Shown here: positions 21,934-56,435 of the stretch, in pieces
Numbering within the stretch: position 1 is the first letter of the stretch
How the letters are laid out: every line of letters starts with the position of its first letter
NCBI GenBank assembly: GCA_965223375.1
Contig: OZ245000.1
Span: forward strand, 275,062-339,061
DNA: 64,000 nucleotides
Reading direction: 5' to 3'
From: Candidatus Rariloculaceae bacterium
Lineage (GTDB): Bacteria; Pseudomonadota; Gammaproteobacteria; Steroidobacterales; Rariloculaceae
Notes under the pieces: model-generated
The model's input: only the letters and a program-made list of their open reading frames with translations
What the model was told of the DNA's origin: nothing
Databases searched by the model: none
Made by a program: the position numbers and the translations under genes

Positions 21934-21956
21934 GCTAGCGGGTTCCAGTCGCTGTC

Positions 21957-23600: not shown

Positions 23601-23625
23601 GTATTCAGATTTTGGATATTTTATT

Positions 23626-23638
23626 TATCAACAGTTTA
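23626..23638 (+). promoter_or_regulatory. IHF-consensus site in an AT-rich patch upstream of prpB
   Basis: TATCAACAGTTTA matches WATCAA-N4-TTR, with an AT tract on its 5' side. Confidence 0.5.
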
Positions 23639-23704
23639 TAAGGTTTATATGAACCTCCTGATTAAACTCTTCTTCGCGTATGCCGCACGATGGCGGCGTG
23701 TGCA

Positions 23705-24580
23705 ATGACGGCCGGCGCCCGTTTCCGTCAGGCTCTGGCCGCCGAGTCGCCGCTGCAGCTGGCGGGCACCGTCAACGCCTATTGCGCGTTGCTGGCCGAG
23801 CGCGCCGGCTTTCGCGCGATCTACCTGTCAGGCGCAGGGGTCGCCAACGCGTCACTCGGTCGGCCCGATCTGGGCATTACGAATTCTTCCGATCTGGCCG
23901 AAGACATTCGACGTATCACGTCCGCAAGCGATCTGCCGCTGCTGGTCGACGCGGATACCGGCTTCGGCTCCGCCTTCAACATCGCGCGGACCTGCACGGA
24001 CCTGATTCGCGCCGGCGCGGCGGGACTCCACCTGGAGGACCAGGTGCAGGCGAAACGCTGTGGCCACCGTCCCGGAAAGGCGCTGGTCGATGAGCACGAG
24101 ATGGCGGATCGCCTGCGCGCCGCCGTAGATGCCCGGACCGATGACGACTTCGTCATCATGGCGAGGACCGACGCGCATGCCGTTCTCGGCCAGCAAGCAG
24201 CGGTGGAACGCGCGGCAGCCTACGTGGAAGCGGGCGCGGACATGATCTTCGCCGAGGCGTTGCGCTCGCTCGACGAGTACCGCGACTTCGTGCAGGCCGT
24301 CGACGTGCCGGTGCTCGCGAACATGACCGAATTCGGCGTTACGCCCCTGTTCACGCTCGATGAGCTCGCGGGGGCCGGTGTGCGGCTCGTCCTGTATCCG
24401 CTGTCCGCATTTCGCGCAATGAGCCGTGCGGCGACAACCGTCTACGAGTCGATCCGACGCGAAGGAACGCAGAGATCGGTCGTCGATTCCATGCAGACGC
24501 GTGAGGAGCTGTACGAAGTGCTCGGCTATCACGAGTACGAGCAACGCCTCGACGAGCTCTTCGGAAACGACGAAGAATGA
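23705..24580 (+). CDS. prpB: Methylisocitrate lyase
   Basis: [39 protein letters not shown]. Confidence 0.95.
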
Positions 24581-26034
24581 GCGGGGCAGCCATTAAGTCA
24601 GCCGAGAGGCCGAAGCCGGACCGCCTTCTGGAGGAGATCGCGACCTACACTGTTGCGAGCGGAGTGGATGGAACGCTTGCCTACGAAACGGCCCGCTACT
24701 GTCTGCTCGATTCGCTCGCTTGCTGCTTTCAGGCCCTGGCCTTCCCTGCCTGCAGGCGCCTGCTCGGACCGATCGTCCCGGGAGCGACGCTGCCGGGTGG
24801 CGCGCGAGTGCCCGGGACCGCGTTCGAGCTCGATCCGGTCCAGGCGGCTTTCAACACCGGCGCCCTGGTGCGTTGGCTCGACTTCAACGACACGTGGCTC
24901 GCTGCCGAATGGGGACACCCATCCGACAATCTCGGCGCCATTCTCGCCGTTGCGGACTATCTCGGGCGTGCAGGCGCGCCTGACGGCGGCACGCCGATGT
25001 GTGTACGCGACCTGCTGACCTGCATGATCAAGGCGCACGAGATCCAGGGGGTCCTGGCACTGACGAACAGCTTCAATCGAGTGGGGCTGGATCATGTCCT
25101 GCTGGTGCGGGTTGCATCGACGGCAGTTGCCACCGGAATGCTCGGCGGGTCGATCGAGGACGTCATCAATGCGGTCTCCAACGCATGGCTCGACGGCGGC
25201 GCGTTGCGCACCTACCGGCACGCACCGAATACCGGGTCGCGGAAGAGCTGGGCGGCGGGCGACGCCACTTCGCGTGCGGTGCGCCTTGCGCTGTTGGCGC
25301 GCCGCGGCGAAATGGGCTACCCGTCGGCGCTCTCGGCGCCCGGCTGGGGTTTTCAGTCGGTGCTGTTCGACGACCGGACGATCGAGCTCAGCCGGCCACT
25401 GGGCAGCTACGTGATGGAGAACGTGCTCTTCAAGATCAGCTTTCCGGCCGAATTCCACGCGCAGACGGCCGTTGAATGCGCGCTCGAGCTTCACGAGGCT
25501 GTAGCCGGCCGGCTCGACGATATCGCCGAGGTGAGAATCGAGACCCAGGAGCCGGGCGTCCGGATCATCGACAAGACCGGAACGCTGGCGAATCCCGCCG
25601 ACCGCGACCACTGCATTCAGTACATGGTTGCGATTCCGCTGATCTTCGGCCGGCTTGAAGCGGCCGACTACGAGGACGATGTCGCGAGCGACGAACGCAT
25701 CGATGCACTGCGTTCCCGGATGACCGTGGTCGAGAACGAGACCTTCACACGGGAGTACTACGAACCCGACAAGCGCTACATCGGCAATGCGATTCAGATT
25801 GCGTTTCGCGACGGGTCCCGCACCGAGCGCGTCGCGCTCGACTATCCGGTCGGCCACAGGCTGCGGCGTGCAGAGGGCGTCCCGCTGTTGCTCGACAAGT
25901 ACGAGCGCTCGGTCAGGAGCCATTTCGAGGGGGCGCAGGCCGACCGGGTCGCCGGTCTCGCCACGCTCGGCGACGCGCTCGACGAGATGCCGGTCACCGA
26001 GCTCGTCGACACGCTGGTGACCGACCGAGCCTGA
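24577..26034 (+). CDS. prpD: 2-methylcitrate dehydratase
   Basis: [48 protein letters not shown]. Confidence 0.95.
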
Positions 26035-26223
26035 TACGGTCGGATCTGGCGCGTTCCCGTCGGAACACGCTCGGCGACAGAACCCCGGCCGGGCGGACGG
26101 CCAGGTTGTCGACGGCCCGCCAGCCCGGATTTGGGCCCGCAGCGACTTGCAGTCGCCGGCCGTAGTCGTCAGCATAGACGCGGCTTCATCGGGCACGATC
26201 ATCAACCACAATCGGAAACGACC

Positions 26224-26793
26224 ATGAAAACCATAGTTTCGGGATTACTCGGCCTCGCCATCGCACTGCCTGCCATCGCTGCGCTCGAAGTTGGCGATTC
26301 CGCACCGCAATTTCAGGCGAAGGCCTCACTCGCGGGCGAAGAGTTCGACTTTTCGTTGAGCGAAGCACTGGCGGAAGGACCCGTCGTCGTCTATTTCTAC
26401 CCCTCGGCCTACACGCAGGGCTGCAACATTCAGGCGCATCAGTTCGCGACTCAGATGGACGACTTTGAAGCTGCCGGCGCGAGCGTCATCGGCGTTTCGC
26501 TCGACAGCATCGAGCGTCTGAACGACTTCTCGGCCGACCCGGAGTACTGCGCCGGACGTCTCGCCGTCGCCTCCGATCCGGAGGGTGCCATCGCACTGTC
26601 CTATGATCTCGATGTCCGAGAGGGTCGCGCGGGCCTGACGGATACGCGCGGTGTCGAGATCGGCCACGGCTTCGCCGAACGGACTACATTCATTGTCACG
26701 CCGGATGGCCAGATCTCGCATACGATCGGCGGCGTCTCACCGATCGAAAACGTGCAGGCGTCCCTCGAGGCAGTTCGTTCGCTCAACAACTGA
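26224..26793 (+). CDS. Exported peroxiredoxin (BCP/PrxQ type)
   Basis: Signal peptide; YFYPSAYTQGC (PxxxTxxC); ERTTFIV. Confidence 0.85.
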   Translation: MKTIVSGLLGLAIALPAIAALEVGDSAPQFQAKASLAGEEFDFSLSEALAEGPVVVYFYPSAYTQGCNIQAHQFATQMDDFEAAGASVIGVSLDSIERLNDFSADPEYCAGRLAVASDPEGAIALSYDLDVREGRAGLTDTRGVEIGHGFAERTTFIVTPDGQISHTIGGVSPIENVQASLEAVRSLNN

Positions 26794-26901
26794 TAGACAC
26801 AACAACAGGCCGGCGGCGCTTTGCGTCGCCGGCCTCCCCGGCAATCAGGGACCGCTCGCGGCACCGATGGTGCAGGGCCGGCCCCGCGCCGCTCGCCCCT
26901 G

Positions 26902-29163
26902 ATGCGCGCGCCCCCGGTTCATAAAGACCTCGTGCTGATCGGCGGCGGCCACAGCCATGTGGCCGTGCTCCGCTCCTTCGGCATGCGCCCGATCCCGGGC
27001 GTCCGCTTGACCCTGGTCACCCGCACAATCGAGACACCCTACTCCGGCATGTTGCCGGGTCTGATCGCCGGCTATTACTCGCATGACGAAGCCCACATTG
27101 ACCTTGCGCCGCTGAGCCGCTTCGCCGGCGCGCGACTGCTCAGAGCGGCCGCCATTGCCATCGACGCGGAGCGCCGGCTGATCGAGCTCGAAGGCCGCCC
27201 GCCGCTCGAATACGACGTCTGCTCGTTGAACTGCGGCTCCACACCGACACTGCCGGATTCTATCGAGCCGTCTGACTGCCTTACGCCGGTCAAGCCGATT
27301 GACGCGTTTCTTGCGGCATGGGAGGCGACCGTCGAGCATGCTGCAACGCTGAACCGGCCGATTCGGATCGCGATCGTCGGTGGCGGAGCCGGCGGCGTCG
27401 AGCTCGCTCTCGCCGCCGCAGCACGCCTGCGCCGCGAAGGCCACGACGCAGCGCTCGAACTGCTGACGGCAAGCGACCGGATTCTTCCGACTCACAACGG
27501 TGGCGCCCGCAGGCGACTGCACGCGGCGCTGAGTCGCCGCGGGATCGCGGTCCACGATGGGGACGCCGTCGTCAACGTTCGCGGCGGACGCCTCGAAACA
27601 CGGTCGGGACGGTGCGACGACTTCGACCGCGTTTTCTGGGTGACGCACGCTAGCGCGCCGGGGTGGATCTCGCGGTCCGGTCTCGAAACCGATGAGGCCG
27701 GCTTCCTGGCCGTCGATCCCCGCCTGCAGTCCCTTTCACATGACGGTGTATTCGGTGCCGGCGACGTCGCGAGTATTCGCGGCTTTCCGAGGCCGAAGTC
27801 GGGTGTCTTCGCCGTGCGGGCTGGCAAGCCGCTGACCGCCAATCTGCGCGATGCGATTCGGGGTAGAGCGCCGCGGCGAAATTTTCTTCCACAACGCGAA
27901 TTTCTCAGCCTGATCGGCACCGGCGACGGCTCAGCCATCGCTTCGCGCGGACCCTTTGCTGCCGGCGGCCCGAGCCTTTGGCGACTAAAGGAGTGGATAG
28001 ACCGCCGGTTCATGCGCCGATATCAGCAGCTGCCGGCCATGTCGGACGACGAGCCCCGTTTGACCGTGCCGACAGACATTGCGGACGAGCAGTCGGAGCT
28101 CGGCGACCCGATGCGCTGCGGCGGCTGCGGGGCCAAGGTCGGCGCTGACGTGCTCGCCGCTGCGCTCGAAGGTCTGCCGGTCGGGACCGGAGCCGCTGCC
28201 GGCACCCGGCATGACGTCGAAATCGGGCTCGGAGCACCGGATGACGCCGCGTTGCTGGCGGCGCCGCGCGACGGCCTCATCGCAGTCTCGGTCGATGGCT
28301 TTCGGACAATGATTGACGATGCCTGGCTCTTCGGCAGAATTACCGCAACCCACTGCCTGAACGACCTGCACGCGATGGGCGCCACCCCTCAGGCCGCCCT
28401 CGCGTTCGCCGCTTTGCCGGTGTGGCCGCAGCGCAAACTGGTCGGCGAGCTGCGGCTGATGCTGCAAGGTGCGATTGCAACGCTCGCAGACGACGGCGCC
28501 GAGCTCGTGGGTGGTCACACCAGCGAGTCAGCGGAAACCAGCCTCGGCTTCTCCGTGACCGGGCTCGTCACTCGTGATCGCGTATTGAGCAAACGCGGCC
28601 TCAATGCGGGGCACCGGCTCATTCTTACGAAGGCCCTCGGCACCGGTGCGATACTCGCAGCTCACATGCGCGCACGCGCGCGCGGCAGGTGGCTCGAAGC
28701 TGCCATTGCCTCGATGTGCCAATCGAACGCGCAAGCCGCGAGCGTTTTTCTGGCATTCGGCGCTACCGCCTGCACGGACGTCAGTGGATTCGGTTTTCTC
28801 GGGCACCTGAGCGAAATGGTCGCAGCAGGACAGACCATTGAGCTCGACATCGATGCCGTGCCGGCACTCGACGGTGCCATGGAATGTATCGAGCGCGGCT
28901 TGCTCTCGACGATGCACCCGAAAAACGCGCGATTACCGGCCGGTGTTCGATGCGACGAGTCTCTGCGCCGGGACCGGCATTATCCGCTGCTGCTCGATCC
29001 GCAAACTGCCGGCGGCCTGCTCGCAGCAGTACCGGCGGAGTTGGCTGTTGCGTGCCTTGCGGCGCTGGAATCGGCCGGCTACGGCGCGAGCGCAATCGTC
29101 GGCCGGGTCGTCGCAGGCGGCGACGGCGTTACGATTCGCCCGGCAACCGGCCAACGATCATAG
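26902..29163 (+). CDS. selD: Selenide, water dikinase fused to an N-terminal FAD/NADH oxidoreductase-like domain
   Basis: N-terminal GGGHSH, GGGAGG, GAGD; C-terminal MRCGGCGAKV, DDAA, NDLHAMG, GGHT, LTKALGTG, TDVSGFG, DPQTAGGLL. Confidence 0.92.
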   Translation: MRAPPVHKDLVLIGGGHSHVAVLRSFGMRPIPGVRLTLVTRTIETPYSGMLPGLIAGYYSHDEAHIDLAPLSRFAGARLLRAAAIAIDAERRLIELEGRPPLEYDVCSLNCGSTPTLPDSIEPSDCLTPVKPIDAFLAAWEATVEHAATLNRPIRIAIVGGGAGGVELALAAAARLRREGHDAALELLTASDRILPTHNGGARRRLHAALSRRGIAVHDGDAVVNVRGGRLETRSGRCDDFDRVFWVTHASAPGWISRSGLETDEAGFLAVDPRLQSLSHDGVFGAGDVASIRGFPRPKSGVFAVRAGKPLTANLRDAIRGRAPRRNFLPQREFLSLIGTGDGSAIASRGPFAAGGPSLWRLKEWIDRRFMRRYQQLPAMSDDEPRLTVPTDIADEQSELGDPMRCGGCGAKVGADVLAAALEGLPVGTGAAAGTRHDVEIGLGAPDDAALLAAPRDGLIAVSVDGFRTMIDDAWLFGRITATHCLNDLHAMGATPQAALAFAALPVWPQRKLVGELRLMLQGAIATLADDGAELVGGHTSESAETSLGFSVTGLVTRDRVLSKRGLNAGHRLILTKALGTGAILAAHMRARARGRWLEAAIASMCQSNAQAASVFLAFGATACTDVSGFGFLGHLSEMVAAGQTIELDIDAVPALDGAMECIERGLLSTMHPKNARLPAGVRCDESLRRDRHYPLLLDPQTAGGLLAAVPAELAVACLAALESAGYGASAIVGRVVAGGDGVTIRPATGQRS

Positions 29164-43994: not shown

Positions 43995-44180
43995 TGGGCT
44001 GTCCCGCCATCATGCCGATGATTCAACGGTAAGCGCCTCGAAACTGGTGCTGCAAGCGAATAAGCCCGGCGCGATTGCTAGACGTTGCGTGAAGGCTCGA
44101 TTCGGTGCCGGACAATCAAGTGCTGACGAAGGCGGTGCCGGAGATTGAGCGGATTGCTGCTGCGAGCCTACTTCGCGTGG

Positions 44181-44815
44181 CTACTTGAACACGAACCAAA
44201 TGACGTGCACCCACGCCAAGCCGTGCATGATTTCTGGTAGGACGCATTCGGAGAAGCCGCGGCCGTTGATGGCGGAGCGAATAAAGGCTCCACTCCCGCC
44301 GATTGACAGCTTCCACCAGGGAATCCGCACGACTGCAACATTATTCTTCAAGTTCTCCACGTTCTTGGAGTCTTCGTATCGCCCGCGAATGAAGGTTGCT
44401 TCTGGCTTCCAGCCTGAAACTTCCAAGCGCGCTCCGTCGGTGGACGGTATGAGAGAACGTTTGAAATGTTCGATGTTCTCGGGCACAACCCACCGAGAGA
44501 ACGGTCCCAGGAATAGCTCGTTGGAGAACTCGCGGTGAAACAGACTCCAAGGTGCTGCGGTTTTGGGCCTGGCGAGATAGTAGCTCCAATATAGGTATGC
44601 AAGCGCGAGTGCGGCGACACATAAAGCACATCTTCACGCTCGACTTGTACGGAGCCCCATAGAATACGAGAACCATCGAGCTTGCCCCCGGCAAGTACGA
44701 AGCAGATGATTGCGCTGCTTATTGCCAACACCGATCGTCGGTGTCTGACAAACGCGGAGTCAGTTAGGCCTTGTTCGTCGGCGGCATGAATTCCTTTGTT
44801 GCGCCGAAACTCCAT
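44181..44815 (-). pseudogene. Frameshifted membrane protein gene
   Basis: MEFRR...EDVLYV continues in another frame as VAALALAYLYWSYY...VVPENIEH...WFVFK; break near 44616-44620. Confidence 0.6.
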
Positions 44816-44816
44816 A

Positions 44817-45470
44817 TCAAGGAGTGGCCTGAGCGTTGGGCGGCGGTAGCACGATCGGCTCGATCGACTCGCCCTCAAGCCACGCCGGCGGGTTGAGTTC
44901 GGGGTGCCAGACGAACATGGGCGTGTAAGAGACTTTTTGGGAGGTCCATACGCCGAATGGAAGCTTCCACTCGTATGTGACCCGGATCCGCATTTCAGCA
45001 GCCGTGAGTGGAGGTGGTGTCCGCACATGCTCCTCCATGTTGCACCGGATCTGACGTTGCGCACGTGGCTCCAAAAAGGCTGGCGACACGGATCGTGGCA
45101 ACATGACGTAGTTGCTTCCCAGCTCGACCGACATTCGATCTGGTGGTCCCGACTCAAATTTGTAGATCGCGCATTGAAAGGTGGCGTGCACTGTAAATAG
45201 CAGACTTGCGTTCCTTGCGGTGAACGGTATTTGGAACGCGTCTGAATAGTTCGGTGGGCCAGGCTCGACTTCTGGCACCGTCGGCCAAGGTGGGCCCCGG
45301 AACTGATGCACGGCTTCAACGACGGCCAGGATGCCTAGGGCGATAGTTAGTACCCGGCCAATCGGCGTCGCAATCCAGCGTAGAAGCTTTCGCCATACTT
45401 CGCGTTTGCGACCGCCGGGCGGACTGACCACCGTTGAGCGCCAAGGCCGATTCCGACGAAGATCGTTCAT
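44817..45470 (-). CDS. Membrane-anchored hypothetical protein
   Basis: Basic N-terminus, one TM (VLTIALGILAVV), beta-rich C-terminal region; the next ATG is 1 nt after its stop. Confidence 0.55.
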   Translation of the reverse strand: MNDLRRNRPWRSTVVSPPGGRKREVWRKLLRWIATPIGRVLTIALGILAVVEAVHQFRGPPWPTVPEVEPGPPNYSDAFQIPFTARNASLLFTVHATFQCAIYKFESGPPDRMSVELGSNYVMLPRSVSPAFLEPRAQRQIRCNMEEHVRTPPPLTAAEMRIRVTYEWKLPFGVWTSQKVSYTPMFVWHPELNPPAWLEGESIEPIVLPPPNAQATP

Positions 45471-45489
45471 CGCCCTACCAGTCTGCCAC

Positions 45490-45518
45490 AAGAAGAAAGC
45501 CCGGCGCATGGCCGGGCT
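45490..45518 (-). terminator. Rho-independent terminator
   Basis: AGCCCGGC/GCCGGGCT stem followed by TTCTTCTT on the minus strand. Confidence 0.7.
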
Positions 45519-45539
45519 CGGTGGGGATTGACAGGCCGA

Positions 45540-45764
45540 TCAGGCGCGAGGCCGTTTCTGTTCATCGTGCACGGCGTCGTCTAGTCGCTCGACCGTATCC
45601 ATTAGGACTGACTCGATCGTCTGCAACGTCCCGCGCAGGCACGTAACGTCGAGAGTGAGCGTCTCGCCGTCTGCGGCTGTGATCGACTCCCGCATGGTGC
45701 TGAGCAGGCCGCCAAGGTCCGTCAGCGCGTTCGATATGCCGGTCAGGCGTTCTTGTTCGCTCAT
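45540..45764 (-). CDS. Small helical hypothetical protein (74 aa)
   Basis: MSEQERLTG; ATGA overlap with the upstream gene; GGAGG RBS. Confidence 0.6.
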   Translation of the reverse strand: MSEQERLTGISNALTDLGGLLSTMRESITAADGETLTLDVTCLRGTLQTIESVLMDTVERLDDAVHDEQKRPRA

Positions 45765-46168
45765 GATACGGCCTCCGGATCGTCGTCGGCATACATGGCT
45801 TTTGCTTCTGCCATGACGGACTCGCAGTCGTCCCGCCAGCACAGGGCCACGTTCAACCGCATCGATGCCGCTTCCATCATCTCGGCGAGTGCTTTCAGGG
45901 CGTCGGCATACCTGTGGATCTGATCGGCAGCCGCGGCGAGATGCACGGCGCCTTCACGTTCCCGCACCATGTCGATCACCTCCTGGCCGGTCTTGGTCAG
46001 CGAAATCAGACCGATCCGGCGCCACGGTCCGAAAGGCTCGTTTGCGGTGGCTCGCTGCTCGCACTGTCGCCATTGTTCGTCGGTGAGCTGTGCGGGCTGG
46101 GCCTTGAAGTCGGCGGCCAGTTGATCGAAGTCGACTTCATCGGTTGCGGTATCCTCGTCGGTAGCCAT
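45761..46168 (-). CDS. Small acidic hypothetical protein, phage/satellite-like
   Basis: GGGAGA RBS and ATGGCT start; first gene downstream of selC. Confidence 0.6.
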   Translation of the reverse strand: MATDEDTATDEVDFDQLAADFKAQPAQLTDEQWRQCEQRATANEPFGPWRRIGLISLTKTGQEVIDMVREREGAVHLAAAADQIHRYADALKALAEMMEAASMRLNVALCWRDDCESVMAEAKAMYADDDPEAVS

Positions 46169-46335
46169 CAATCTGTTCTCCCGTAACGGTTGGTGGTAGA
46201 CCGTCCGGGCTCTGTGCAGCTCGGGCGATCACACGTCACGCAGCGCAACGCTGCACGGGAGGCGACTCGCCTATGGCGGGGTGGATGTTGGGGCGTCAGA
46301 ATATCTGACGTAAGCTACTGAATTATAAATACTAT

Positions 46336-46428
46336 TGGCGGAGGTGGATGGGAATCGAACCCACCGCCCGGGTTCGCCGGGCCGCCGGTTTTGAAGACCG
46401 GGGAAGTCACCAGACTTCATTCACCTCC
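46336..46428 (-). tRNA. selC: tRNA-Sec (anticodon UCA)
   Basis: 93 nt GGAGGTGA...CTTCAAA anticodon loop, long variable arm, GGTTCGATTCC, ending GCCA; directly downstream of selB. Confidence 0.95.
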
Positions 46429-46444
46429 ATCGAGGGACGATATC

Positions 46445-48340
46445 TTACCTTTGTCGTAGCCTGCGAAGATTGCCATTGCGCTCGGTCGCGCCAATCGCAT
46501 CAAAGTGCTCGAGCAGAGGCACGATGAAGCGTCGCGTCGAGCCCAGAACATCACGTGCGTCCTTTACGGCAAAAGCTTCCGGATAAGGGTACCTCTCGGC
46601 CAATGAAGCCATCGCGGCCTCGATCGCAGCCGCGTGCAGGAGCTGCGACGCCTTCCGGTCGTAGGTACGCAGCCGGACGACGCGACCGCTCTCGATCAGC
46701 ATCTTGAGCATCGCCTTGCGGATCGGATCGCTACCGACGAGCTGTCGCCAGTCCGGCGGTTCGAGCCCCGACCTGCCAAACAGCGAATCGAGCGTCTCGT
46801 AAACATCCCTTTGCCGATCCGTAAGCGACGCCAGAGCATCATGCTCGCGGAGACAGAGCAAAGAACCGTTCCTGAGCAGCGTGCCCTGGTCCACGAGCCG
46901 ATCCACGACATGTCGAAGCAACTCGGAATCCGTATCGATTCCCACCTCCCTCGAGATCGCCGCGACATCGAACCCGACCGCGGCGTCCGATCCGGCATGC
47001 AGCCCCTCGACGCCGGCCGTCACCGACTCGGCAAGCGCCTCGATCGAAGCATCGGCGACGACGAAGCCCGCCCGGATCTCGACGGCGTCGCACCTCGGAA
47101 GCACGTCACGAATTTCGGCCTCGCTATGACCGGTAGCATCACCAATCGACACGACGGCGACCGGATCCCGCGCATCGGCCAGCAGAGATCGAACGGCCCC
47201 TTCGAGATCCCCGGAGCCGAGCGCCGTGAGCCGCGCGACAATCGAGTCATCGAAGCGCCGGTGCCGGCGCGGGTTCACGGCGAGAACCCTGCCTCCGCCG
47301 AGCGTCGCCGCAGGGGACAGACGCCGAATGATGTATCGCTCCGTCCTGTGCGTTGCAATCTCCCTCTCGAGGCGCCACTGAACCAGTCCCGAGCTGCCGG
47401 GCTCGATGGCGTCGCAACCGAGCAGCCTCGCCGTCGCCGTTACGGCGGTTGCGCCACAGAGCAATCTCACTCTGACGCCATTCGTCAGCGCCTCGGCGGT
47501 CGGCAGGATCGATACTTCGCCATCGACACGTCGCGTCGCCCGCAGGAGGTCCGGCGTTGCGACGACGTCCCCGCGATCGAGCGCAGACAGTTCAACCCCA
47601 CGCAGATTGAGCGCGACGCGCTGACCGGGCCGCGCGATCTCGACGGCACGGCCGTGAACTTCGATGCCTCGCACACTCGCTTCGTGGCCGGCCGGCTGGA
47701 CCACGATCCGCTCACCGACACCGATCTCGCCGTGGCGGAGCGTTCCGGTGACGATTACACCGAACCCGTGCCGGGTGAACAGGCGATCCACGGGCAGAAA
47801 GGCGCCATCGCCGGGTTCGTGACGCTTCCCGGTGCCCGCGAGCGACACCAGATGCGCCTTAAGGCTTTCTATGCCGTCTCCGGTCACGGCCGAGCACTCG
47901 ACGATCGGCGCCTCGGCGAGTGGCGAACCGGCGACGAGCCCGGCAATGTCCCGTCGCAGCCCTGCGATGCCACCCTCGTTCGATCGGTCGACCTTCGTGA
48001 TTGCAATCAGTCCCTGCCCCACATTCAGCAGGTTTGCGATATCGAAGTGCTCGACCGTCTGCGGCGCAACGCCCTCGTCCGCCGCAACACAGAGCATGAC
48101 GGCGTCGATACCGGTTGCACCCGCGACCATTGCGCGAATGAAGTCCTCGTGGCCGGGCGCATCGATAAGATCGACGACCCCTCGATCCGTCTCGAGGAAC
48201 GAAAAGCCGAGCACGATCGAAAGGCCACGTTCGCGTTCCTCAGGCAGCCGGTCCGTCTCGATCCCGGTGAGCGCCCGAACCAGCGCTGTCTTGCCGTGAT
48301 CGACGTGGCCCAGAACGCCGAGCGTGACTCCGCCGGTCAA
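46445..48340 (-). CDS. selB: Selenocysteine-specific elongation factor
   Basis: GHVDHGKT, DRLPEERERGLSIVLGF, DAPGHE, TKVD; C-terminal wHTH with STRRFIVPLLEHFD; TTG start overlaps the selA stop. Confidence 0.95.
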   Translation of the reverse strand: MTGGVTLGVLGHVDHGKTALVRALTGIETDRLPEERERGLSIVLGFSFLETDRGVVDLIDAPGHEDFIRAMVAGATGIDAVMLCVAADEGVAPQTVEHFDIANLLNVGQGLIAITKVDRSNEGGIAGLRRDIAGLVAGSPLAEAPIVECSAVTGDGIESLKAHLVSLAGTGKRHEPGDGAFLPVDRLFTRHGFGVIVTGTLRHGEIGVGERIVVQPAGHEASVRGIEVHGRAVEIARPGQRVALNLRGVELSALDRGDVVATPDLLRATRRVDGEVSILPTAEALTNGVRVRLLCGATAVTATARLLGCDAIEPGSSGLVQWRLEREIATHRTERYIIRRLSPAATLGGGRVLAVNPRRHRRFDDSIVARLTALGSGDLEGAVRSLLADARDPVAVVSIGDATGHSEAEIRDVLPRCDAVEIRAGFVVADASIEALAESVTAGVEGLHAGSDAAVGFDVAAISREVGIDTDSELLRHVVDRLVDQGTLLRNGSLLCLREHDALASLTDRQRDVYETLDSLFGRSGLEPPDWRQLVGSDPIRKAMLKMLIESGRVVRLRTYDRKASQLLHAAAIEAAMASLAERYPYPEAFAVKDARDVLGSTRRFIVPLLEHFDAIGATERNGNLRRLRQR

Positions 48341-49725
48341 CGGACGATCTGGCGCATCGCCTCGATGAGCGCCGGTTCCTCGTGAGCCGGGACGGTCCGC
48401 AGATCGATCAGCAGCGTATCCCGCGCAACGCGGGCGACGACCGGCATCCGCACCGCCCGCAAGCGACGCGCGAGCTCCGCCCCGGACACAGACCTGCTGC
48501 TGCACTCGATCACGCGTGTTGCGAGCTCGCTCATCGGCAGCGCGCCGCCACCGGCGAAGCTCACGTCGTCCACAATGTTCGTCGCGAGCCCACTCTGCGC
48601 GTCGATCTCCTCGGCGACGCGCTCGGCGCGCCGGCCGATCTCGTCAGCGCCCGCGGACAACATCCTGAGCACAGGAATGCACTGCCACGGATCGTTCGGC
48701 GGCAGGTAAAGGCGCAGAGTTGCCGCGAGCGCAGCCAGCGACAGCTTGTCGATTCTGAGCGCGCGCGCAAGCGGATGTTTTCGGAGCCGCCCGATCACGC
48801 TTGCCTTGCCGACAAGTACGCCTGCCTGCGGGCCGCCAAGCATCTTGTCGCCACTGAACGTAACGACCCCCGCACCCGATGCGACGCAGTCGCGCACAGT
48901 AGGCTCCGGGTCGAGGCCGGCAAGCGCAGGGTCGACGAGCGTGCCGCTCCCGAGGTCGTGCACGAATTCGATGCCGTTTCGGTCGGCCAGAGCGGCAAGC
49001 TCCAACGCAGCAGGCTTCATTGTGAAGCCGACGATCCGGTAGTTGCTGGGGTGACTGGTCAGCAACACACGCGTGGTCTCGCCGATCGCCCGGGCATAGT
49101 CGTCTATCGACGTGCGGTTCGTCGTGCCGACTTCGACCATTCGTGCCCCGCTCGCCTCGATGACGTCCGGCATGCGGAAGGATCCGCCGATTTCTATCAG
49201 CTCACCACGCGAAACGACGACGTCGCCGTTCGCAGCGAGGCCCTGCAGCGCCAGCAGCACGGCCGCCGCACAATTGTTGACGACCAACGCCGCCTCGGCG
49301 CCCGTCAGCTCGCAGATCAGCGCCTCGACGTGATTTCCCCGCGATCCCCGCCTGCCGGCCCCCAGGTCGAATTCGAGGTTCGAGTAGCCGCGTGCCGTGT
49401 CATCCATCGCTGCCAGCGCCTCTTCGGCCAGCGGCGCACGACCGAGATTCGTGTGCACGACGATGCCGGTTGCGTTGACGACCCGTTGCAAGGAGCCGAG
49501 CCTGCGAGACAGAATGCCGGAGCGTATCGTCGCGACGAACCGATCGCCGGCGAAATCCGGCAATGCCTCTCTGCCGCCGCGAATTTCGGCGCGGAGCGCC
49601 GCGAGGCGGGTCCTGAGCGCCGCAATCACCTCTTCGCGCGAAAACTCACTGCTCAGCGACGACCCTGGCTCGGTGGCGAGCCAGGCATCGATCCCGGGGA
49701 GTTGTCTCAGCAAATCGGCGGACAT
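48337..49725 (-). CDS. selA: L-seryl-tRNA(Sec) selenium transferase
   Basis: NATGIVVHTNLGRAPL, VSRGELIEIGGSFR, DLGSG, FSGDKMLGGPQAG. Confidence 0.96.
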   Translation of the reverse strand: MSADLLRQLPGIDAWLATEPGSSLSSEFSREEVIAALRTRLAALRAEIRGGREALPDFAGDRFVATIRSGILSRRLGSLQRVVNATGIVVHTNLGRAPLAEEALAAMDDTARGYSNLEFDLGAGRRGSRGNHVEALICELTGAEAALVVNNCAAAVLLALQGLAANGDVVVSRGELIEIGGSFRMPDVIEASGARMVEVGTTNRTSIDDYARAIGETTRVLLTSHPSNYRIVGFTMKPAALELAALADRNGIEFVHDLGSGTLVDPALAGLDPEPTVRDCVASGAGVVTFSGDKMLGGPQAGVLVGKASVIGRLRKHPLARALRIDKLSLAALAATLRLYLPPNDPWQCIPVLRMLSAGADEIGRRAERVAEEIDAQSGLATNIVDDVSFAGGGALPMSELATRVIECSSRSVSGAELARRLRAVRMPVVARVARDTLLIDLRTVPAHEEPALIEAMRQIVR

Positions 49726-49784
49726 CGCAGACTCGACCCGAATGTGCAGCAGCGGCCGATTCTAACCGAGCCGATGGACACGGC

Positions 49785-49955
49785 CCCGCGCAGCCCTTGG
49801 CGGCCCCGCGCAGCGCCTCGCGACCCTCGCAACTCTCAAAGCCCGTCGCCACCCTCGCGATCGTCGCAGCCCCTCGCTCCCGGCCCGGACCCTCGCTTCC
49901 CGCGCAGCCCCGCGGCCCGGGCGCAGCCCCTCGATTCCCGCGCGGCCCCACGCCC
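49785..49955. repeat. Degenerate low-complexity repeat tract (gcagcccctc / gaccctcgc-like units)
   Basis: Many 9-10 bp variants in the selA-trxB divergent spacer. Confidence 0.45.
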
Positions 49956-50061
49956 GCCACGAATGCCTCGGCGTCCGCCAAATGCCATGCCTGGTCAGCC
50001 GGGTATCGTCGGAGCCCGACGAGACGGTACCCTTCCGGTCTCGGTAAACCGCGGAGCGACT

Positions 50062-50985
50062 GTGAGCAGCGACTTCGACATCATCGTGGCCGGCAGCGGC
50101 GTCGCGGGCCTCAGCGCCGCGCTGACGGCCGCCCGGGCCGGCCAGCGAGTCCTCGTGATGACCGGCGATACGCTCGGCGGGCACCTGCTAAGCATCGAAA
50201 AAATAGACGGCTGCCCCGGCTTCCCGGAAGGCGCGGCCGGCTACGACTACTGCCCCTCGATACAGGAACAGGCGGCCGAGGCTGGCGCCGAGTTCGCAAT
50301 GGAAGCAGTCGAATCGCTGAGTCCGGTTGGGGATTCCTGGCGAGTCACCGGGGCGGCCGGCGAGCGGCACAGCCGCGCCGTGATCGTCGCAACCGGGACG
50401 CGGCTTCGCTCGCTAGGCGTTCCCGGTGAAGACCTGCTGCGCGGCAAGGGCGTCAGCCAGTGTGCGAGCTGCGACGCGCCGCTGATGCGCGGGCAGACCG
50501 TCGCAGTGGCCGGTGGCGGCGACTCCGCGATGCAGGAAGCGCTGACACTGGCCGAGCACTGCGGTCGTGTCATCGTCGTCCATCACGGCGACCGGCTCGT
50601 CGGTCAGGCGGCATATGTGGCGCAGGTATCCGAGCACGGGCGCATCGACCTGCAACCCGACTCGGAAATCGTCGAGATCGTCGGCGCCGAGTCGGTAACC
50701 GGCGTACGAATTCGCGAACTAGGCTCCGGAAATACCTCAGAGCAGGACTGCACTGGCGTCTTCGTTTTCGTCGGCCTCGACCCGACCAGTGCCATCGTTC
50801 CCGACGCAGCGCGCGATGCACACGGCTACGTGAGCACCGATGCGCGCTTCAGAACGAGCCTGCCCGGCCTTCTCGCAGCCGGCACCGTCCGCGCGGGTGC
50901 CAGCGTTCGGGCGGCTTCGGCGGCCGGCGAAGGCGCCAGCGCCGCGATCAGCGCCGACGCGTTTCTGCGCGGCGATTCTTGGTAG
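50062..50985 (+). CDS. Thioredoxin reductase-like FAD/NAD(P)H disulfide oxidoreductase
   Basis: GSGVAGL, IVATG, GVSQCASCD (CxxC), GGGDSA; GTG start after GGAG. The 867-aa ORF in the track is over-extended. Confidence 0.88.
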   Translation: MSSDFDIIVAGSGVAGLSAALTAARAGQRVLVMTGDTLGGHLLSIEKIDGCPGFPEGAAGYDYCPSIQEQAAEAGAEFAMEAVESLSPVGDSWRVTGAAGERHSRAVIVATGTRLRSLGVPGEDLLRGKGVSQCASCDAPLMRGQTVAVAGGGDSAMQEALTLAEHCGRVIVVHHGDRLVGQAAYVAQVSEHGRIDLQPDSEIVEIVGAESVTGVRIRELGSGNTSEQDCTGVFVFVGLDPTSAIVPDAARDAHGYVSTDARFRTSLPGLLAAGTVRAGASVRAASAAGEGASAAISADAFLRGDSW

Positions 50986-51160
50986 CCGACGGCACCTTCC
51001 GCCCTCGCCGTCACTTTGAGGCTCTCGCTCGCGGCTGCGCCCTCGAGTCACGCACCCAGCGCGGACACCGCCGCCGGCATTCCCCGGCACCCACGCACAG
51101 CGTTCCCGAGTTGCGGCGCGGGCCGTTACAATCCTATCTTCCGATATATCTCAGGGCATC

Positions 51161-52795
51161 ATGAGCAAGAAACTCACCGTCCATGACCCACGCGGCTATC
51201 CGCCACAGGTAACCGGCAAGCGTCTTGCGCCGCGCCTCGACAGACTCGACGGCAAGACTGTCTATCTGGTCGATTGCCTGTTCGACAACTCCGAAGTGTT
51301 CATGAACGAGCTGCAGCGCTGGTTCGCCGAGCACCTGCCGGGCGTCGTGACCCGCGCCATCAAGCCGCGCGAGAGCTGGGTCGACGACCCGGAGATGCGC
51401 GCCGCGATCGAACGCGACGGCGATGCGGCGATACTCGGGGTAGGACTCTGAAGCACCTGTAGCCCGACGGTCGTCGGGCTCGCGATGTCCCTCGAAGAGG
51501 GGGGCATTCCGACAGTCGCCGTGCACACGCACGTATTCTCGCGGCTGGTACGATCCGTTGCGCGTGCAAACGGCATGCCGACTACCCGGCAGGCATTCGT
51601 TCCCCAGCCCATCGTGGACCGCAGCGCCGCGCAACTGCGTGACTACATCCTCGGCGACGACCCCATCTCGCGGCGGCCTTTCATGCAGGAGGTCGTCGAA
51701 GGGCTGACCAGGCCTCTTGACGAGAACGACATCAAGGGCCTCACCTTCGAACGCTCGACACCGCGCTTCGTCGCAGCCGACACGGAAGAGAATCTGCATG
51801 CGCTGTTCGAGGACCAGCTGTGGACGGACCACCTGCCCATCGTGCTACCGACCGAGGAACGGGTAGAGCGAATGCTGGCCGGCACCAGCCAGCCGGCGGA
51901 CACGGTCGTCGGGAAGCTCAGGCCGACGATGTTTCGCGAGTACTGGGAGTTCACGGTAGAAAAGGCGGCGGTGAATGCCGTCATGGCCGGGGCGAAACCG
52001 GAGTACTTCCCGGTCATCCTGGCCTTGCTCGCGACCGGACAGACGGCTCGCTCGAGCAGCACGAACTCGTTCGCGACGTTCTCGGTCGTCAACGGCCCGA
52101 TCCGCACCGAGATCGGCATGGGCGACGGCATCGGCGCGCTCGGCCCGTACAACCATGCCAACGCTACCATCGGCCGCGCTTTCAATCTGGCGTCGGTCAA
52201 TCTGCAGGGCGGCTCGGTGCCTGGCGACACCTACATGGGCACGCTGGGCAACTGGTACAACTACAGCGCTACGTTCGCCGAAGCCGAGGAGCGGAGTCCC
52301 TGGGCACCGTTCCACGTTCAGCACGGGTATGGCGCCGAAGACAGCACGGCCAGCGTCTTTTTCGGTGGCTGGTATACGCAGGCGGGTTATGGGCCACGTG
52401 ACACCTGGCAGGAGAAATTCCGCCACTCGTTCGCGGCCGCCGAACATTATCTCCCCCCGGTCATCGTGATGGACCCGATCGCCGCGCGAGGCTTCGTCGA
52501 ACTCGGGTTCGACACGAAGGAAAATCTGATCGATTGGTGTGCACGCAATGCGCGCGTTCCCGCGCGGGAATACTGGGACAACCAGTGGGTGCAGACACTC
52601 CTTCATCCGCACGCGGTTGCGGGCGTCGAGCCGTACGCCTCGCGTCTGCGTGCAGCGCCCGACGAGTTGATCGAGATCTATACGCCGGAGCAGATCAAGA
52701 TCATCGTCGCGGGCGGCGAGACCCAGGGCGCCTGGAAGATGTTCGGCGGCAATTACGGGCCGGCCAGCACCATGTCGGTCGACGCTTGGCGCTGA
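51161..52795 (+). CDS. UGSC-family selenoprotein, 544 aa, Sec at UGA 51449-51451 (UxxC motif USTC)
   Basis: Track ORFs 51161-51451 and 51485-52795 are in frame; read-through gives ILGVGL-U-STCSPTVVGLAMSLEEGGIPTV; SECIS-like hairpin follows; Sec machinery is adjacent. Confidence 0.85.
51461..51480 (+). promoter_or_regulatory. Putative bacterial SECIS element
   Basis: Perfect stem AGCCCGAC-GGTC-GTCGGGCT after a 9-nt spacer 3' of the UGA, with G at the start of the loop. Confidence 0.7.
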
Positions 52796-52933
52796 ACAGG
52801 ACTGGCGCCAAACAGGATTGGCGCCGAATGAGCCTGACCGCGGTCCCGGAGCGCTGTTCCCCGCGCTGCCCGGCTCTGCTCGGCGGCAGTCGCCTTACAA
52901 TGCCGGTTCGATTCTGATCACCGGGATGTCCGA

Positions 52934-53764
52934 ATGAGCGAAAACAACGATACCGTCGCCTGGTCGAAGCGCGACGGGATAGCCTGGGTGCGGTTTAACC
53001 GGCCCGAGAAGCGCAACTGCATGAGCCCGACACTGAACCGACGCATGCTGGAAGTGCTCGACGAGCTCGAGTTCGATGACGAGGTCCGTGTCCTCGTGTT
53101 GACCGGCGAAGGCTCTGCCTGGTCGGCCGGCATGGATCTGAAAGAGTACTTTCGGGAGACCGAGGCGAAAGGCCTGGGCGCGGTCAGGCAATCACAACGT
53201 GAGGCCTACGGCTGGTGGCGGCGGCTTCGCTGGTATCAGAAGCCGACCATCGCGATGGTCAACGGCTGGTGCTTCGGTGGCGGCTACGGACCGCTCTTCG
53301 CCTGCGACCTGGCTTTCGCCGCAGATGAGGCGAACTTCGGCCTGAGTGAAATCAACTGGGGCATCCTGCCGGGCGGGGGTGCCACCAAAGTCGCGTCCGA
53401 GCTGCTCAACTTCCGGCGCGCGATGTATCACGCGCTGACCGGCGAGAACATCGATGGCCGAAAGGCCGCCGAATGGGGCCTCGTCAACGAGTCACACCCA
53501 CTCGCGGAGCTCGAGGCGCGGGTCGTCGAAGTGGCCAATATTCTGAAAGAAAAGAATCCTGTGGCGCTGAAGGCCACCAAGGACGCAATGCGTCGGGTCA
53601 GGGAGATGACCTACGAAAACGCGGAGGACTTTCTCGTCCGCGCCCAGGAGGCGGCCAATAGCTTCGATAACGAGGGGCGCAAGGAGGGAATCCGCCAGTT
53701 CATCGACGACAAGTCCTACAAGCCCGGCCTGGGGTCCTACGAGGTAGAGCGAAACCGCGACTGA
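52934..53764 (+). CDS. p-hydroxycinnamoyl-CoA hydratase/lyase (crotonase family)
   Basis: NRPEKRNCMSPTLN, AGMDLKEYFRE, GWCFGGG, LSEINWGILPGG, KSYKPGL. Confidence 0.88.
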   Translation: MSENNDTVAWSKRDGIAWVRFNRPEKRNCMSPTLNRRMLEVLDELEFDDEVRVLVLTGEGSAWSAGMDLKEYFRETEAKGLGAVRQSQREAYGWWRRLRWYQKPTIAMVNGWCFGGGYGPLFACDLAFAADEANFGLSEINWGILPGGGATKVASELLNFRRAMYHALTGENIDGRKAAEWGLVNESHPLAELEARVVEVANILKEKNPVALKATKDAMRRVREMTYENAEDFLVRAQEAANSFDNEGRKEGIRQFIDDKSYKPGLGSYEVERNRD

Positions 53765-53841
53765 CGCTGTAATAACTGCGCACGCCATGGGGTCCAGTTT
53801 CCGTGTAACTCAATCATCACACAGGTTCTGGAGGTTTCAAG

Positions 53842-54150
53842 ATGTCCGATTACAGCTCGATTCGCAGAAAGCTGGTATCCACCGGCGTTGCAGCCGCGGT
53901 AGGCCTTGCGGCAGCCGGCACCGTGAGCGTTGCCTCGGCGCAGGACGCCGAGGGTATGGAGAAATGTTACGGTGTGTCGCTCGCGGGCAAGAACGATTGC
54001 GCTGCCGGGCCCGGCACCAGCTGTGCCGGCACGTCGACGATCGACTATCAGTCGAATGCCTGGAAGCTCGTGCCTGCCGGTACCTGCGAGTCCATCGAGA
54101 CGCCGCATGGCAACGGTTCGCTCGAGTCGTCCGACGCGCGCCTGCCCTGA
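53842..54150 (+). CDS. DUF2282 / BufA1-type bufferin precursor peptide
   Basis: Signal peptide, then [36 protein letters not shown] (4 Cys). Confidence 0.88.
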
Positions 54151-54167
54151 AGTAGCCCGACCGGGGC

Positions 54168-55148
54168 GTGCCAGTGCCCGGCCAGCCTTCCGAAAATAGC
54201 GAAGCTGAGAGCCCGGTGCCGATCGAAGTCGGCATCGGGCTGAAGCCCGCACATTACGCCGATGTTCTCTCGGGCGACCCTGCGCTCGGCTTCCTGGAAG
54301 TCCATACGGAAAACTACATGGGCCGCGGCGGCCCCCCGCACCGGTACCTGGAGCGGCTCGCCGAACGTTATCCGCTCTCGTTTCACGGCGTGGGGCTCTC
54401 GCTCGGGGGCAGCGAGCGGCTCGACGCCGGGCATCTTCGAAACTGGCGAGCGCTGGTCGATCGGTACTCGCCAGCGCTGATTTCGGAACACGTCGCGTGG
54501 TCGTCGTTCGGCGGCACGGCATTTCACGACTTGCTGCCACTGCCCTACACGCGTGAGGCCCTCGACGCGCTGTGCCGAAATATCGACCAGATGCAGGAGG
54601 CACTCTGTCGACGCATCCTGATCGAGAACCCCTCCCGCTATCTGGATTTCGTCGGTTCCGATATGCCGGAGCCCGATTTTCTGGTGGCGGCTGCGACCAG
54701 GACCGGCTGTGGCTTGCTGCTCGACATCAACAATGTCTACGTGAGCACCCGCAATCAGGGTGAGGACGCTCGCGATTGGCTCGCTGCCGTTCCGATCGAC
54801 CTCGTCGGTGAAATCCACCTGGCCGGACATACTGTCGAACAGACGGCTGACGGGGAGGTGCTGATCGACGATCACGGCTCGGCCGTCGCGGCGGACGTAT
54901 GGACGCTCTACGCCGAAACGATCGCTCGTTGCCGCGACTGCCCGACGCTGATCGAGTGGGATACGAATGTGCCAGCGCTCGAAACGCTGCTATGTGAAGC
55001 GTCCCGGGCCCGTGAGATTTCGGAGCAGCCGGCCGCCCGTCGGGAGAATTCCAAGCCGCGGCCGGAGCGCCGGCGCCCTCGCGATCCGGACGCCGTCGAT
55101 GCGGTCACCGAACACCGCCGAGCCGAGGCAGATGCCAGCGCTCTCTGA
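54168..55148 (+). CDS. DUF692 multinuclear non-heme iron oxidase (MNIO, BufB-type)
   Basis: EVHTENY, HGVGLSLG, SEH, DLLPLPY, IENP, LLDINN, EIHLAGH, IDDHG, IEWD. Start uncertain. Confidence 0.92.
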   Translation: MPVPGQPSENSEAESPVPIEVGIGLKPAHYADVLSGDPALGFLEVHTENYMGRGGPPHRYLERLAERYPLSFHGVGLSLGGSERLDAGHLRNWRALVDRYSPALISEHVAWSSFGGTAFHDLLPLPYTREALDALCRNIDQMQEALCRRILIENPSRYLDFVGSDMPEPDFLVAAATRTGCGLLLDINNVYVSTRNQGEDARDWLAAVPIDLVGEIHLAGHTVEQTADGEVLIDDHGSAVAADVWTLYAETIARCRDCPTLIEWDTNVPALETLLCEASRAREISEQPAARRENSKPRPERRRPRDPDAVDAVTEHRRAEADASAL

Positions 55149-55920
55149 CTACCAGGCGGAGATGGCCGCCTTTCTGACCGCCGCCCCGGGATCCCCGGTC
55201 TCGGAGCGGCTTGTGACCGCAAGCGCCGGAGCCGCCAGCACAGCACAAACGCGCCTCGCCATTTATCGGAATAACGTCTATTCGCGGCTGATCGAGGCGC
55301 TGGAAGCGACCTACCCGGCCGTTGCCAGGCTGACCGGCCGGGACTTCTTTCGCTTCGCAGCGCTGCAGTTCGCTCTCGCGCATCCGTCACGCAATCCGAG
55401 CCTGATCGAATACGGTCAGGGTTTCGCCGACTTTCTCGAGCATTTCGAGCCGGCCGCAACGCTGACGTATCTGCCGGACGTCGCGCGGCTCGAGATGTTC
55501 TGGCTCGAGGCGTATCACTCCCCGGATGTGGCACCGCTGACACCGGCCGACGCGCTCTCCGCCGGAGCGGAATACCTTGCACTGCATCCATCAGCCAAGC
55601 TGCTGCACTCTGCGCATGCGGCCTCGCGAATCTGGGAAGTCAATGTGGGCGACCAGCAGATCGACGGTCCGATCAAGCTGCCGCCCGGACCGGAGCACCT
55701 ACTGATTGTCCGCCCCGAAGCCACGGTCGAAGTCCGGCGGCTGGCACGGGGCGCCTGGCACTATCTCCGGGCGCTGAACCGCGGTGCAAGCCGCGCTGAT
55801 GCTGCGGCAGCAGCGCGGGCGACCGACCCCGGAATCGATATCGACGCACACGAAGCCGGCCTTGCTGCCGGCGGCACGTTCGTAGCCACGAGCGGCCCGA
55901 CCGAGGACATCGACACATGA
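55132..55920 (+). CDS. DUF2063 MNIO partner protein (BufC-type)
   Basis: [28 protein letters not shown]. Confidence 0.85.
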
Positions 55921-56435
55921 ATACTGCAAGCGCAAAGACCCTTGTCACCACGAGCCTGGCCGAGCCTGCCGATGACGCGGCTCACGGCACCGAAACGGGC
56001 GCCATTGCAATAGTGCACCGGGTTATCCGGTGGCTCGAGTCCGTCTCTGTAGAAACGGTTGTCTCGACACCGGCACGAATTTTCGTGGCCGTCACGTTCT
56101 GGCTCTCGGGAAGAACCAAGGTAGACGGGCTGCTGTCGGTCAGTGACAGCACCTTCTTCCTGTTTCAATACGAATACAGCCTGCCGCTGCTGCCGCACCG
56201 GTTTGCTGCCCACGTGGCAACGTACGCAGAGCACCTGTTCCCGGTGCTGTTGATCCTCGGGCTCGCCTCGCGCTTAAGCGCCGCGTCCCTGCTTCTGATG
56301 ACAGCCGTAATTCAGTTCTTCGTCTATCCCAATGCCTGGGCCACGCACCTCGGCTGGGCAGCCGCGCTTGCCTTCATTCTGTTCCGCGGGCCGGGCGCCT
56401 TGTCGCTCGACAGCCTCATCCGCAAGCACTTCTGA
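55917..56435 (+). CDS. DoxX family membrane protein (BufD-type)
   Basis: [38 protein letters not shown]. Confidence 0.88.

Follow-up and report, generated by a model that had tools for sequence, protein, structure and literature searches.

The UGSC-containing proteins entered the literature in 2007, as a selenoprotein without an assigned function (PMC1976440), and were counted in 2008 among the major selenoprotein families of the Global Ocean Sampling (GOS) data (Zhang and Gladyshev, PLoS Genet, PMC2398784). The passages of the latter paper devoted to the family report the fusion of the UGSC domain to a second domain, Unknown_1, and the entries under "#UGSC-containing" in its Dataset S1 include a read in which GVGLUSTCSPTVVGL precedes the WTD...PIVLPTE motif that also marks the C-terminal domain described here (PMC2398784). 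In reviews of 2022 and 2026, the sections that name the family still give it no function. Here, we describe a gene of this already published UGSC/Unknown_1 fusion kind, not of a new kind, in a 64,000-nt stretch of Candidatus Rariloculaceae bacterium (assembly GCA_965223375.1, contig OZ245000.1, positions 275,062 to 339,061 of the forward strand), hereafter the window. Translation through an in-frame TGA, Pfam matches and homologous loci jointly delimit a single gene at 51161 to 52795, predicted to encode a selenoprotein of 544 aa plus stop in which a UGSC domain is fused to a large C-terminal partner. It follows a gene for a flavoprotein disulfide reductase resembling thioredoxin reductase (TrxR) and lies close to genes of the selenocysteine (Sec) machinery. 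Coordinates refer to the window, and all features of the selenoprotein and TrxR-like genes are on its plus strand.

Two open reading frames (ORFs), 51161 to 51451 (96 aa) and 51485 to 52795 (436 aa), lie in a common frame that is interrupted solely by the TGA at 51449 to 51451. The read-through product carries the motif L-U97-S-T-C100, so that the UxxC motif announced in an earlier note on this DNA is present, with Cys100 (51458 to 51460), which Sec and Cys forms both keep, as the presumed resolving cysteine. Pfam family PF24696 matches the read-through product at residues 7 to 161 (51179 to 51643), on both sides of the TGA, with 88.9 bits against a gathering threshold of 25 (E value of 5.4e-25; profile positions 2 to 157 of 172); the halves alone reach 33.1 and 31.8 bits. 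A scan of species-representative genomes yielded 80 loci, most of them with a full-length match to residues 1 to 544, under record titles that name Alpha-, Gamma- and Deltaproteobacteria, Chloroflexota, Actinomycetes, Binatia, Eremiobacterota, Poribacteria and others. Counting the motif region in these loci plus the window gave 84 copies, and the position aligned with the UGA is TGA in 76 of them and TGC or TGT in the other 8, a pattern that reads as the classic Sec/Cys signature. Residues are conserved on either side of the TGA, and both the U/C position and Cys100 are strictly retained across the clades that have the motif. The earlier note had proposed one gene broken by a single TGA and a homolog alignment at that codon, and the alignment bears out the proposal.

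The RNA downstream of the UGA adds further comparative support. At 9 nt after the UGA, a putative selenocysteine insertion sequence (SECIS) hairpin (51461 to 51480) pairs 51461 to 51468 with 51473 to 51480 in a perfect 8-bp stem around a GGUC loop (51469 to 51472); the hairpin had already been seen in the window alone, and it covaries among homologs. For this analysis, 59 distinct Sec-form sequences were aligned, and the pairs of the 8-bp helix were counted and compared with 500 shuffles. Columns 18 and 27 pair as G-C in 43 sequences, C-G in 15 and A-U in 1, columns 19 and 26 as A-U in 42 and G-C in 17, and neither pair is broken in any of the 59. The covariation score of the helix was 0.258, versus 0.130 in the shuffles, none of which (0/500) reached it, and all slid registers scored lower. 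The changes in columns 18 and 27 are synonymous, falling in the third positions of one Pro and one Val codon, which argues that it is the RNA, rather than the protein, for which the pairing is kept. Only the GL-U clade retains the lower four pairs; in the GH-U clade, the GGUC loop is unchanged and sits on a shorter upper stem, and the GGUC hairpin is absent from several Cys forms. The fold energy of the window sequence by itself is unremarkable (z of -1.86), and it is the comparative evidence that counts. Directly 3' of the stem, a second strong hairpin of about 10 bp (51481 to 51512, GAUGUCCCUC...GGGGGGCAUU) is not evidently conserved in related loci.

The genome holds the whole Sec-decoding set expected of a bacterium that makes selenoproteins. 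On the minus strand, divergent from the TrxR-like gene, lie selA (L-seryl-tRNA(Sec) selenium transferase, 48337 to 49725; Pfam SelA, E value of 3.6e-138), selB (46445 to 48505 as listed; Pfam GTP_EFTU, SelB-wing_3 and Beta-barrel_SelB) and selC, the tRNA-Sec with anticodon TCA (46336 to 46428; found by ARAGORN and, at 80.9 bits, by Rfam RF01852). The true start of selB is probably near 48340, given that the match to GTP_EFTU starts only at residue 61 in the listed ORF. On the plus strand, at 26821 to 29163, selD is fused to an N-terminal pyridine nucleotide-disulfide oxidoreductase domain in an Ndh-SelD protein (Pfam Pyr_redox_2, AIRS and AIRS_C). All the elements described earlier (the ORFs, the TGA, the hairpin, the CxxC reductase, the divergent selA, selB and selC, and selD within the window) were located where they had been placed.

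If the TGA were instead a true stop, the locus would make separate 96-aa and 436-aa products, or the frame would be a pseudogene or the result of a sequencing error. Gene callers do annotate the two-part form, and an Rfam scan of 44000 to 54000 at E values up to 1 matched no SECIS family, with tRNA-Sec as the sole match. A stop at this codon would leave without an explanation a single Pfam domain that runs across it, 76 TGA and 8 Cys codons flanked by conserved residues, a covarying hairpin and an adjacent Sec machinery. The domain across the TGA, the TGA/Cys conservation and the hairpin covariation effectively exclude termination, pseudogene and sequencing error, to which we assign a vanishingly small chance. 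The evidence on gene structure is far beyond chance, and, from comparative sequence data, this is almost certainly one gene and a genuine selenoprotein.

The UGSC domain is recognized at the level of its Pfam family, as the earlier note had proposed. Its motif is USTC and not the literal tetrapeptide U-G-S-C; the definition used by Zhang and Gladyshev, a UxxC with Sec that is replaced by Cys at the same position in some homologs, describes it well. AlphaFold2, run on a 38-row alignment, returned a confident two-domain model (pLDDT of 93.6, pTM of 0.91), in which U97 sits after strand 89-95 and before helix 100-113. VIA-align superimposes residues 27 to 190 of this predicted model on alpha/beta domains of the flavodoxin/CheY-like kind, with many tied matches and a top Z of 10.6. 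By the matches listed, the model gives a flavodoxin/CheY-like N-terminal domain rather than the "likely Trx-like fold" named in the relevant passage of the 2008 paper (PMC2398784). With the whole model, Foldseek gave nothing convincing (no TM above 0.19), a PDB profile search by sequence returned nothing relevant (best E value of 0.43, to PRA isomerase), and a search of the ESM Atlas returned unnamed clusters only.

Annotation breaks this gene at the UGA as a rule. The genome's own called product, P0003, is a 436-aa fragment. Among the matches listed from a collection of 5.8 billion proteins, the best 120 are all 406 to 438 aa long and none covers more than 80% of the query, which indicates that the split is systematic, as the earlier note had anticipated for standard pipelines. 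NCBI applies the name "UGSC family (seleno)protein" to two such fragments of close homologs, of 424 to 434 aa.

The C-terminal partner domain (residues 195 to 544; 51743 to 52792) is most likely the Unknown_1 domain of the 2008 paper (PMC2398784). It has neither a Pfam or NCBIfam family nor a sequence relative in the PDB; with 55 homologs of the domain, Pfam at E values up to 1 returned UGSC alone, in rows that included the N-terminal domain. Folded alone, its 350 residues give a confident model (pLDDT of 94.0, pTM of 0.93) for which a convincing solved structural relative was not found: VIA-align placed 0 of 48,161 chains at a Z of at least 5 (best Z of 3.8), and Foldseek reached an E value of 1.1e-3 at best, with no TM above 0.24. 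Recurring rows for class I fumarate hydratase, Fe-S serine dehydratase, PrpD/IRG1 and the "Toblerone" enzymes of the cyanuric acid hydrolase type are too weak to be informative. Residues P230, M238, L239, G277, G312, P313, R339, E374, P380, D541 and W543 are invariant, and T222, D223, E267, N334, N347, N364 and E376 nearly so; from the alignment, this conservation looks enzymatic, with polar residues that resemble an active site.

The two domains appear to form a module. We used a 371-aa "standalone" partner protein, P0192, to fetch 80 metagenome loci, which were searched with hidden Markov models of both domains. Both domains were found in one frame free of TAA and TAG, with TGA as the sole interruption, in 55 loci, and a separate UGSC gene lay next door on the same strand in another 11 (8 upstream, 3 downstream), which brings the fused or adjacent cases to 66 of 80. 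The remainder consists of 10 loci with less than 600 nt upstream, too short to judge, and 4 with room but without a full UGSC match. The motifs in these loci include UGSC, UDGC, UPGC, UGAC, USSC and USTC. Judged by these sequences, the domain behaves as an obligate partner of the UGSC domain across bacteria, whether fused or adjacent, and most "standalone" partner proteins seem to be artefacts of the split at TGA or of next-door genes. A statement of this near-obligate link was not found in the passages and listings of the literature searched.

The gene upstream, at 50062 to 50985, encodes a 307-aa TrxR-like flavoprotein disulfide reductase. It has the redox-active C134-A-S-C137 (50461 to 50472), the GGGDSA motif and a Pyr_redox_2 match, i.e., the CxxC with FAD and NAD(P)H domains that characterize TrxB, and 35 homologs all keep C134, A135, C137 and D138. 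With TIGR01292 it scores 253.5 bits, below the equivalog cut-off of 343.45, and the canonical trxB elsewhere in the genome, to which it is 33% identical, scores 399.6 bits. A tblastn search with the TrxR-like protein found a homolog within the flanks of 38 of the 80 selenoprotein loci (30/44 GL-U loci and 8/36 others by tally), and 30 of those 38 genes are on the same strand and within 80 nt of the selenoprotein gene or overlapping it. Loci of the GL-U clade have the TrxR-like gene upstream, those of the GH-U/C clade mostly downstream, and the gene stands beside five of the six primary Cys forms. It is an extra trxB paralog, distinct from the canonical one, and its link to the selenoprotein gene is conserved. 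By comparison, selA is near 8 and selB near 7 of the 80 loci. The listings of full-text literature searches and the passages of the GOS paper on thioredoxin reductase gave no statement tying UGSC proteins to a TrxR-like gene.

The variable neighbors of the selenoprotein loci were listed with a longest-ORF heuristic, which is noisy in high-GC DNA. The enoyl-CoA hydratase gene downstream in the window (52934 to 53764) was considered as a conserved neighbor and rejected, being found in 1 of 80 loci. Similarly, TctC, GMC oxidoreductase, Rieske/LigXa, PhyH, amidohydrolase and PrpD genes proved locus-specific, without a common theme, and a 547-aa ORF conserved upstream in Caldilineaceae is not a paralog of the selenoprotein.

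Together, sequence and model suggest a two-domain Sec protein with the TrxR-like protein as its direct reductant and a selenol that acts on a substrate of the C-terminal domain, a reading that we consider reasonably probable as a whole. The UGA is almost certainly decoded as Sec under the direction of the hairpin at 51461 to 51480, by way of the products of the divergent selA, selB and selC. U97 and C100 would cycle between a selenol/thiol pair and a selenenylsulfide, and C134xxC137 of the TrxR-like protein, supplied with electrons by a pyridine nucleotide, would re-reduce this center directly, the UGSC domain taking the role that thioredoxin has for TrxB. The reduced selenol would then act on a small molecule bound as substrate by the C-terminal domain, for which R339 and E374 (invariant) and T222, D223, E267, N334 and E376 (nearly so) are a candidate active site. 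We infer both the relay from NAD(P)H through the TrxR-like protein to the Sec/Cys pair and the reductase role of the C-terminal domain, which had been put forward in the earlier note.

Several observations weigh against this reading or qualify it, in one or another of its parts. At the level of the family, the product scores 64.9 bits against an equivalog cut-off of 125 bits for NCBIfam NF041046, so that it is a domain-level relative in a long fused form and not an equivalog of the short NF041046 protein; and the epithet "hidden" in the earlier note is apt for gene callers, which split the gene, and not for the literature, where the fusion has been in print since 2008 and Dataset S1 includes a GLUSTC read (PMC2398784). 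The TrxR-like protein has HHG where the TrxB of the same genome has HRR, which makes its nucleotide donor uncertain. The C-terminal domain offers neither a conserved cysteine in its alignment nor a known fold that would hint at its chemistry. The TrxR-like gene was not found within the flanks of 42 of the 80 loci, including all Caldilineaceae loci. The near-complete genome (99.28% complete, 2 contigs) encodes a second UGSC-partner selenoprotein (G000:C1:365101-366693; L083 8102-9694), 67% identical to the first, with one TGA, the motif LUSTCC and a GGUC hairpin of its own. A beta-eliminating lyase/threonine-aldolase-like gene (PF01212) precedes this copy, genes for acyl-CoA dehydrogenase, CoA-transferase and electron transfer flavoprotein (ETF) lie further downstream, and no TrxR gene adjoins it. 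Likewise, TrxR genes in relatives stand beside the orthologous copy only and not beside non-orthologous paralogs. The pairing proposed in the earlier note is therefore a conserved feature of part of the family and does not extend to those loci, to the second copy or to such paralogs.

The same observations leave room for a real two-domain Sec protein that is reduced by way of an intermediary or by the general pool of thioredoxin or glutaredoxin, the TrxR-like protein serving another client or the orthologous copy only. The loci and paralogs without the reductase fit such an arrangement, as do the canonical trxB in the genome and the 175-nt gap that keeps the two window genes from overlapping. 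The tight adjacency in 30 of 38 cases is harder to reconcile with it, recurring in several phyla and in two gene orders and extending to five of six primary Cys forms, and the window shows no thioredoxin gene next to the pair or between its members. We consider reduction from the general pool unlikely.

A different challenge comes from distant two-domain relatives that lack the U/CxxC motif. They keep both domains and the motifs of the C-terminal one, and loops such as GDSGQG, PSxxTT or KTSGS replace U/CxxC. Proteins P0282-P0321 and P0322-P0339 share the architecture, with signal peptides of the Sec or Tat export type and in some cases FN3, SLH or Big_2 domains, and on sequence they would form an exported, non-redox branch of the family. 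Among 69 longer homologs (>614 aa), many start with a Sec or Tat signal peptide or carry FN3 or SLH domains, and one Nitroreductase and one GNAT fusion were found; a Trx or TrxR Pfam domain occurs in 0 of the 69, in a size window that short Trx fusions escape. The existence of motif-less and often exported relatives indicates that the fold works without a cytoplasmic reductant and that the scaffold is older and broader than the redox center, which may be a clade-specific addition.

U97xxC100 would then be no catalytic redox center but a clade-specific addition to a non-redox two-domain enzyme, for instance a switch that responds to redox state, a trap for peroxides or electrophiles, or a ligand for a soft metal or metalloid. 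The retention of both domains and of the C-terminal motifs around a replaced loop is what such a role would leave behind, and so is the export of many relatives, with their signal peptides, Tat motifs and FN3 or SLH domains. Sec is costly, however, and typically retained at catalytic redox positions; the U/C position and C100 are strictly kept in the clades that have them, and a dedicated disulfide reductase gene is linked. A non-catalytic motif seems improbable to us, and the reductase reading, with a catalytic selenol and the TrxR-like protein as its driver, remains the one we prefer.

That reading draws some support from the paralogs. In the same taxonomic family, 11 of 24 genomes carry the gene, with 2 to 6 matches per carrying genome, nearly all with one TGA; such an expansion is as expected of an enzyme with diversified substrates. 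Some related loci have two Sec-form copies within a few kilobases (L010, 4435-4671 and 6181-6420; L034, 232-468 and 6199-6420). We also scanned the genome for SECIS-like elements, defined as a TGA, a spacer of 7 to 14 nt, a perfectly paired stem of 6 bp or more and a loop containing GGT, a definition by which bulged or other-loop SECIS are missed. The scan returned 33 candidates, and coding-like base composition on both sides was seen only in the two UGSC-fusion genes. A genome search found no Rdx/SelW match, and its molybdopterin-domain matches have no in-frame stop inside the domain. The genome's Sec machinery may serve chiefly, or even exclusively, these two UGSC-fusion genes. Tentatively, and with rather less assurance than for the locus itself, we suggest that UGSC and its partner represent an uncharacterised selenoenzyme class with its own TrxR-like driver, reductive chemistry on small metabolites, 2 to 6 paralogs per genome and a catalytic fold without a convincing solved relative, whose two copies in this genome may account for most or all use of the Sec machinery.

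Elsewhere in the window, an AhpC/TSA-family peroxiredoxin gene (26131 to 26793) lies directly upstream of the Ndh-SelD fusion, a fusion type that the GOS paper, in its passage on SelD, describes as common among Cys-type SelD proteins (PMC2398784). Further upstream, 20821 to 26034 holds a citrate-synthase-family gene, an ETF-ubiquinone oxidoreductase gene, a PEP-mutase/isocitrate-lyase-family gene and MmgE/PrpD, likely a 2-methylcitrate-cycle cluster. Downstream of the selenoprotein gene, a plus-strand cluster of four genes (53842 to 56435) encodes a small DUF2282 protein (53842 to 54150), an MbnB/TglH/ChrH-family enzyme (54168 to 55148), a DUF2063 protein (54967 to 55920) and DoxX (55917 to 56435). 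The cluster resembles, as we assume, the copper-related "bufferin" type of ribosomally synthesized and posttranslationally modified peptide clusters.

UGSC selenoproteins are common and have stood unexplained since 2007, and this locus makes their function easy to test. Within 6.5 kb of a near-complete genome, it brings together selC, selB, selA, the TrxR-like gene and the fused UGSC-partner gene as a compact test bed. What was an orphan motif becomes a concrete hypothesis, with a reductant to try, a Sec/Cys center to mutate and a 350-residue domain to solve and to screen for substrates. The findings also bear on annotation, the best 120 homologs listed being truncated at the TGA.

Set against known systems, the locus combines familiar parts in its own way. 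The neighbor resembles TrxB (TIGR01292) and AhpF-type proteins in length, FAD and NAD(P)H Rossmann domains, GGGDSA and C-A-S-C, and departs from TrxB in its lower TIGR01292 score, its 33% identity, HHG for HRR and a presumed client that would be the UGSC domain instead of thioredoxin. The SECIS of fdhF has a GGUC loop and a spacer of 11 nt. The hairpin described here is of this E. coli fdhF type in its place shortly past the UGA and in a small apical loop that exposes G and U, whereas in the GL-U clade its 8-bp stem is perfect and unbulged and in the GH-U clade the upper stem is shorter. Among selenoenzymes, grd operons encode trxB and trxA. GrdB of glycine/sarcosine/betaine reductase and PrdB of D-proline reductase, the latter with its UxxC motif in Table 2 of the GOS paper (PMC2398784), are likewise UxxC selenoproteins, with recycling by a thioredoxin system as a possible shared mode. 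For the UGSC fusion, no pyruvoyl proprotein partner was seen here and no Pfam GRDB match was found at E values up to 0.1 or 1, nor any among the listed fold matches or solved chains; these searches involved no direct profile comparison. By analogy, the inferred logic of the locus would be that of a selenoenzyme driven by a thioredoxin system, like protein B of glycine or D-proline reductase. The closest relationship is with the UGSC family itself. The protein departs from the published description, so far as the passages of PMC2398784 give it, in having USTC in place of UGSC and a flavodoxin/CheY-like model in place of a "likely Trx-like fold", and it stays below the NF041046 cut-off; with that family it shares the Pfam domain, a UxxC motif with Sec/Cys pairs, a bacterial SECIS and the fused C-terminal domain.

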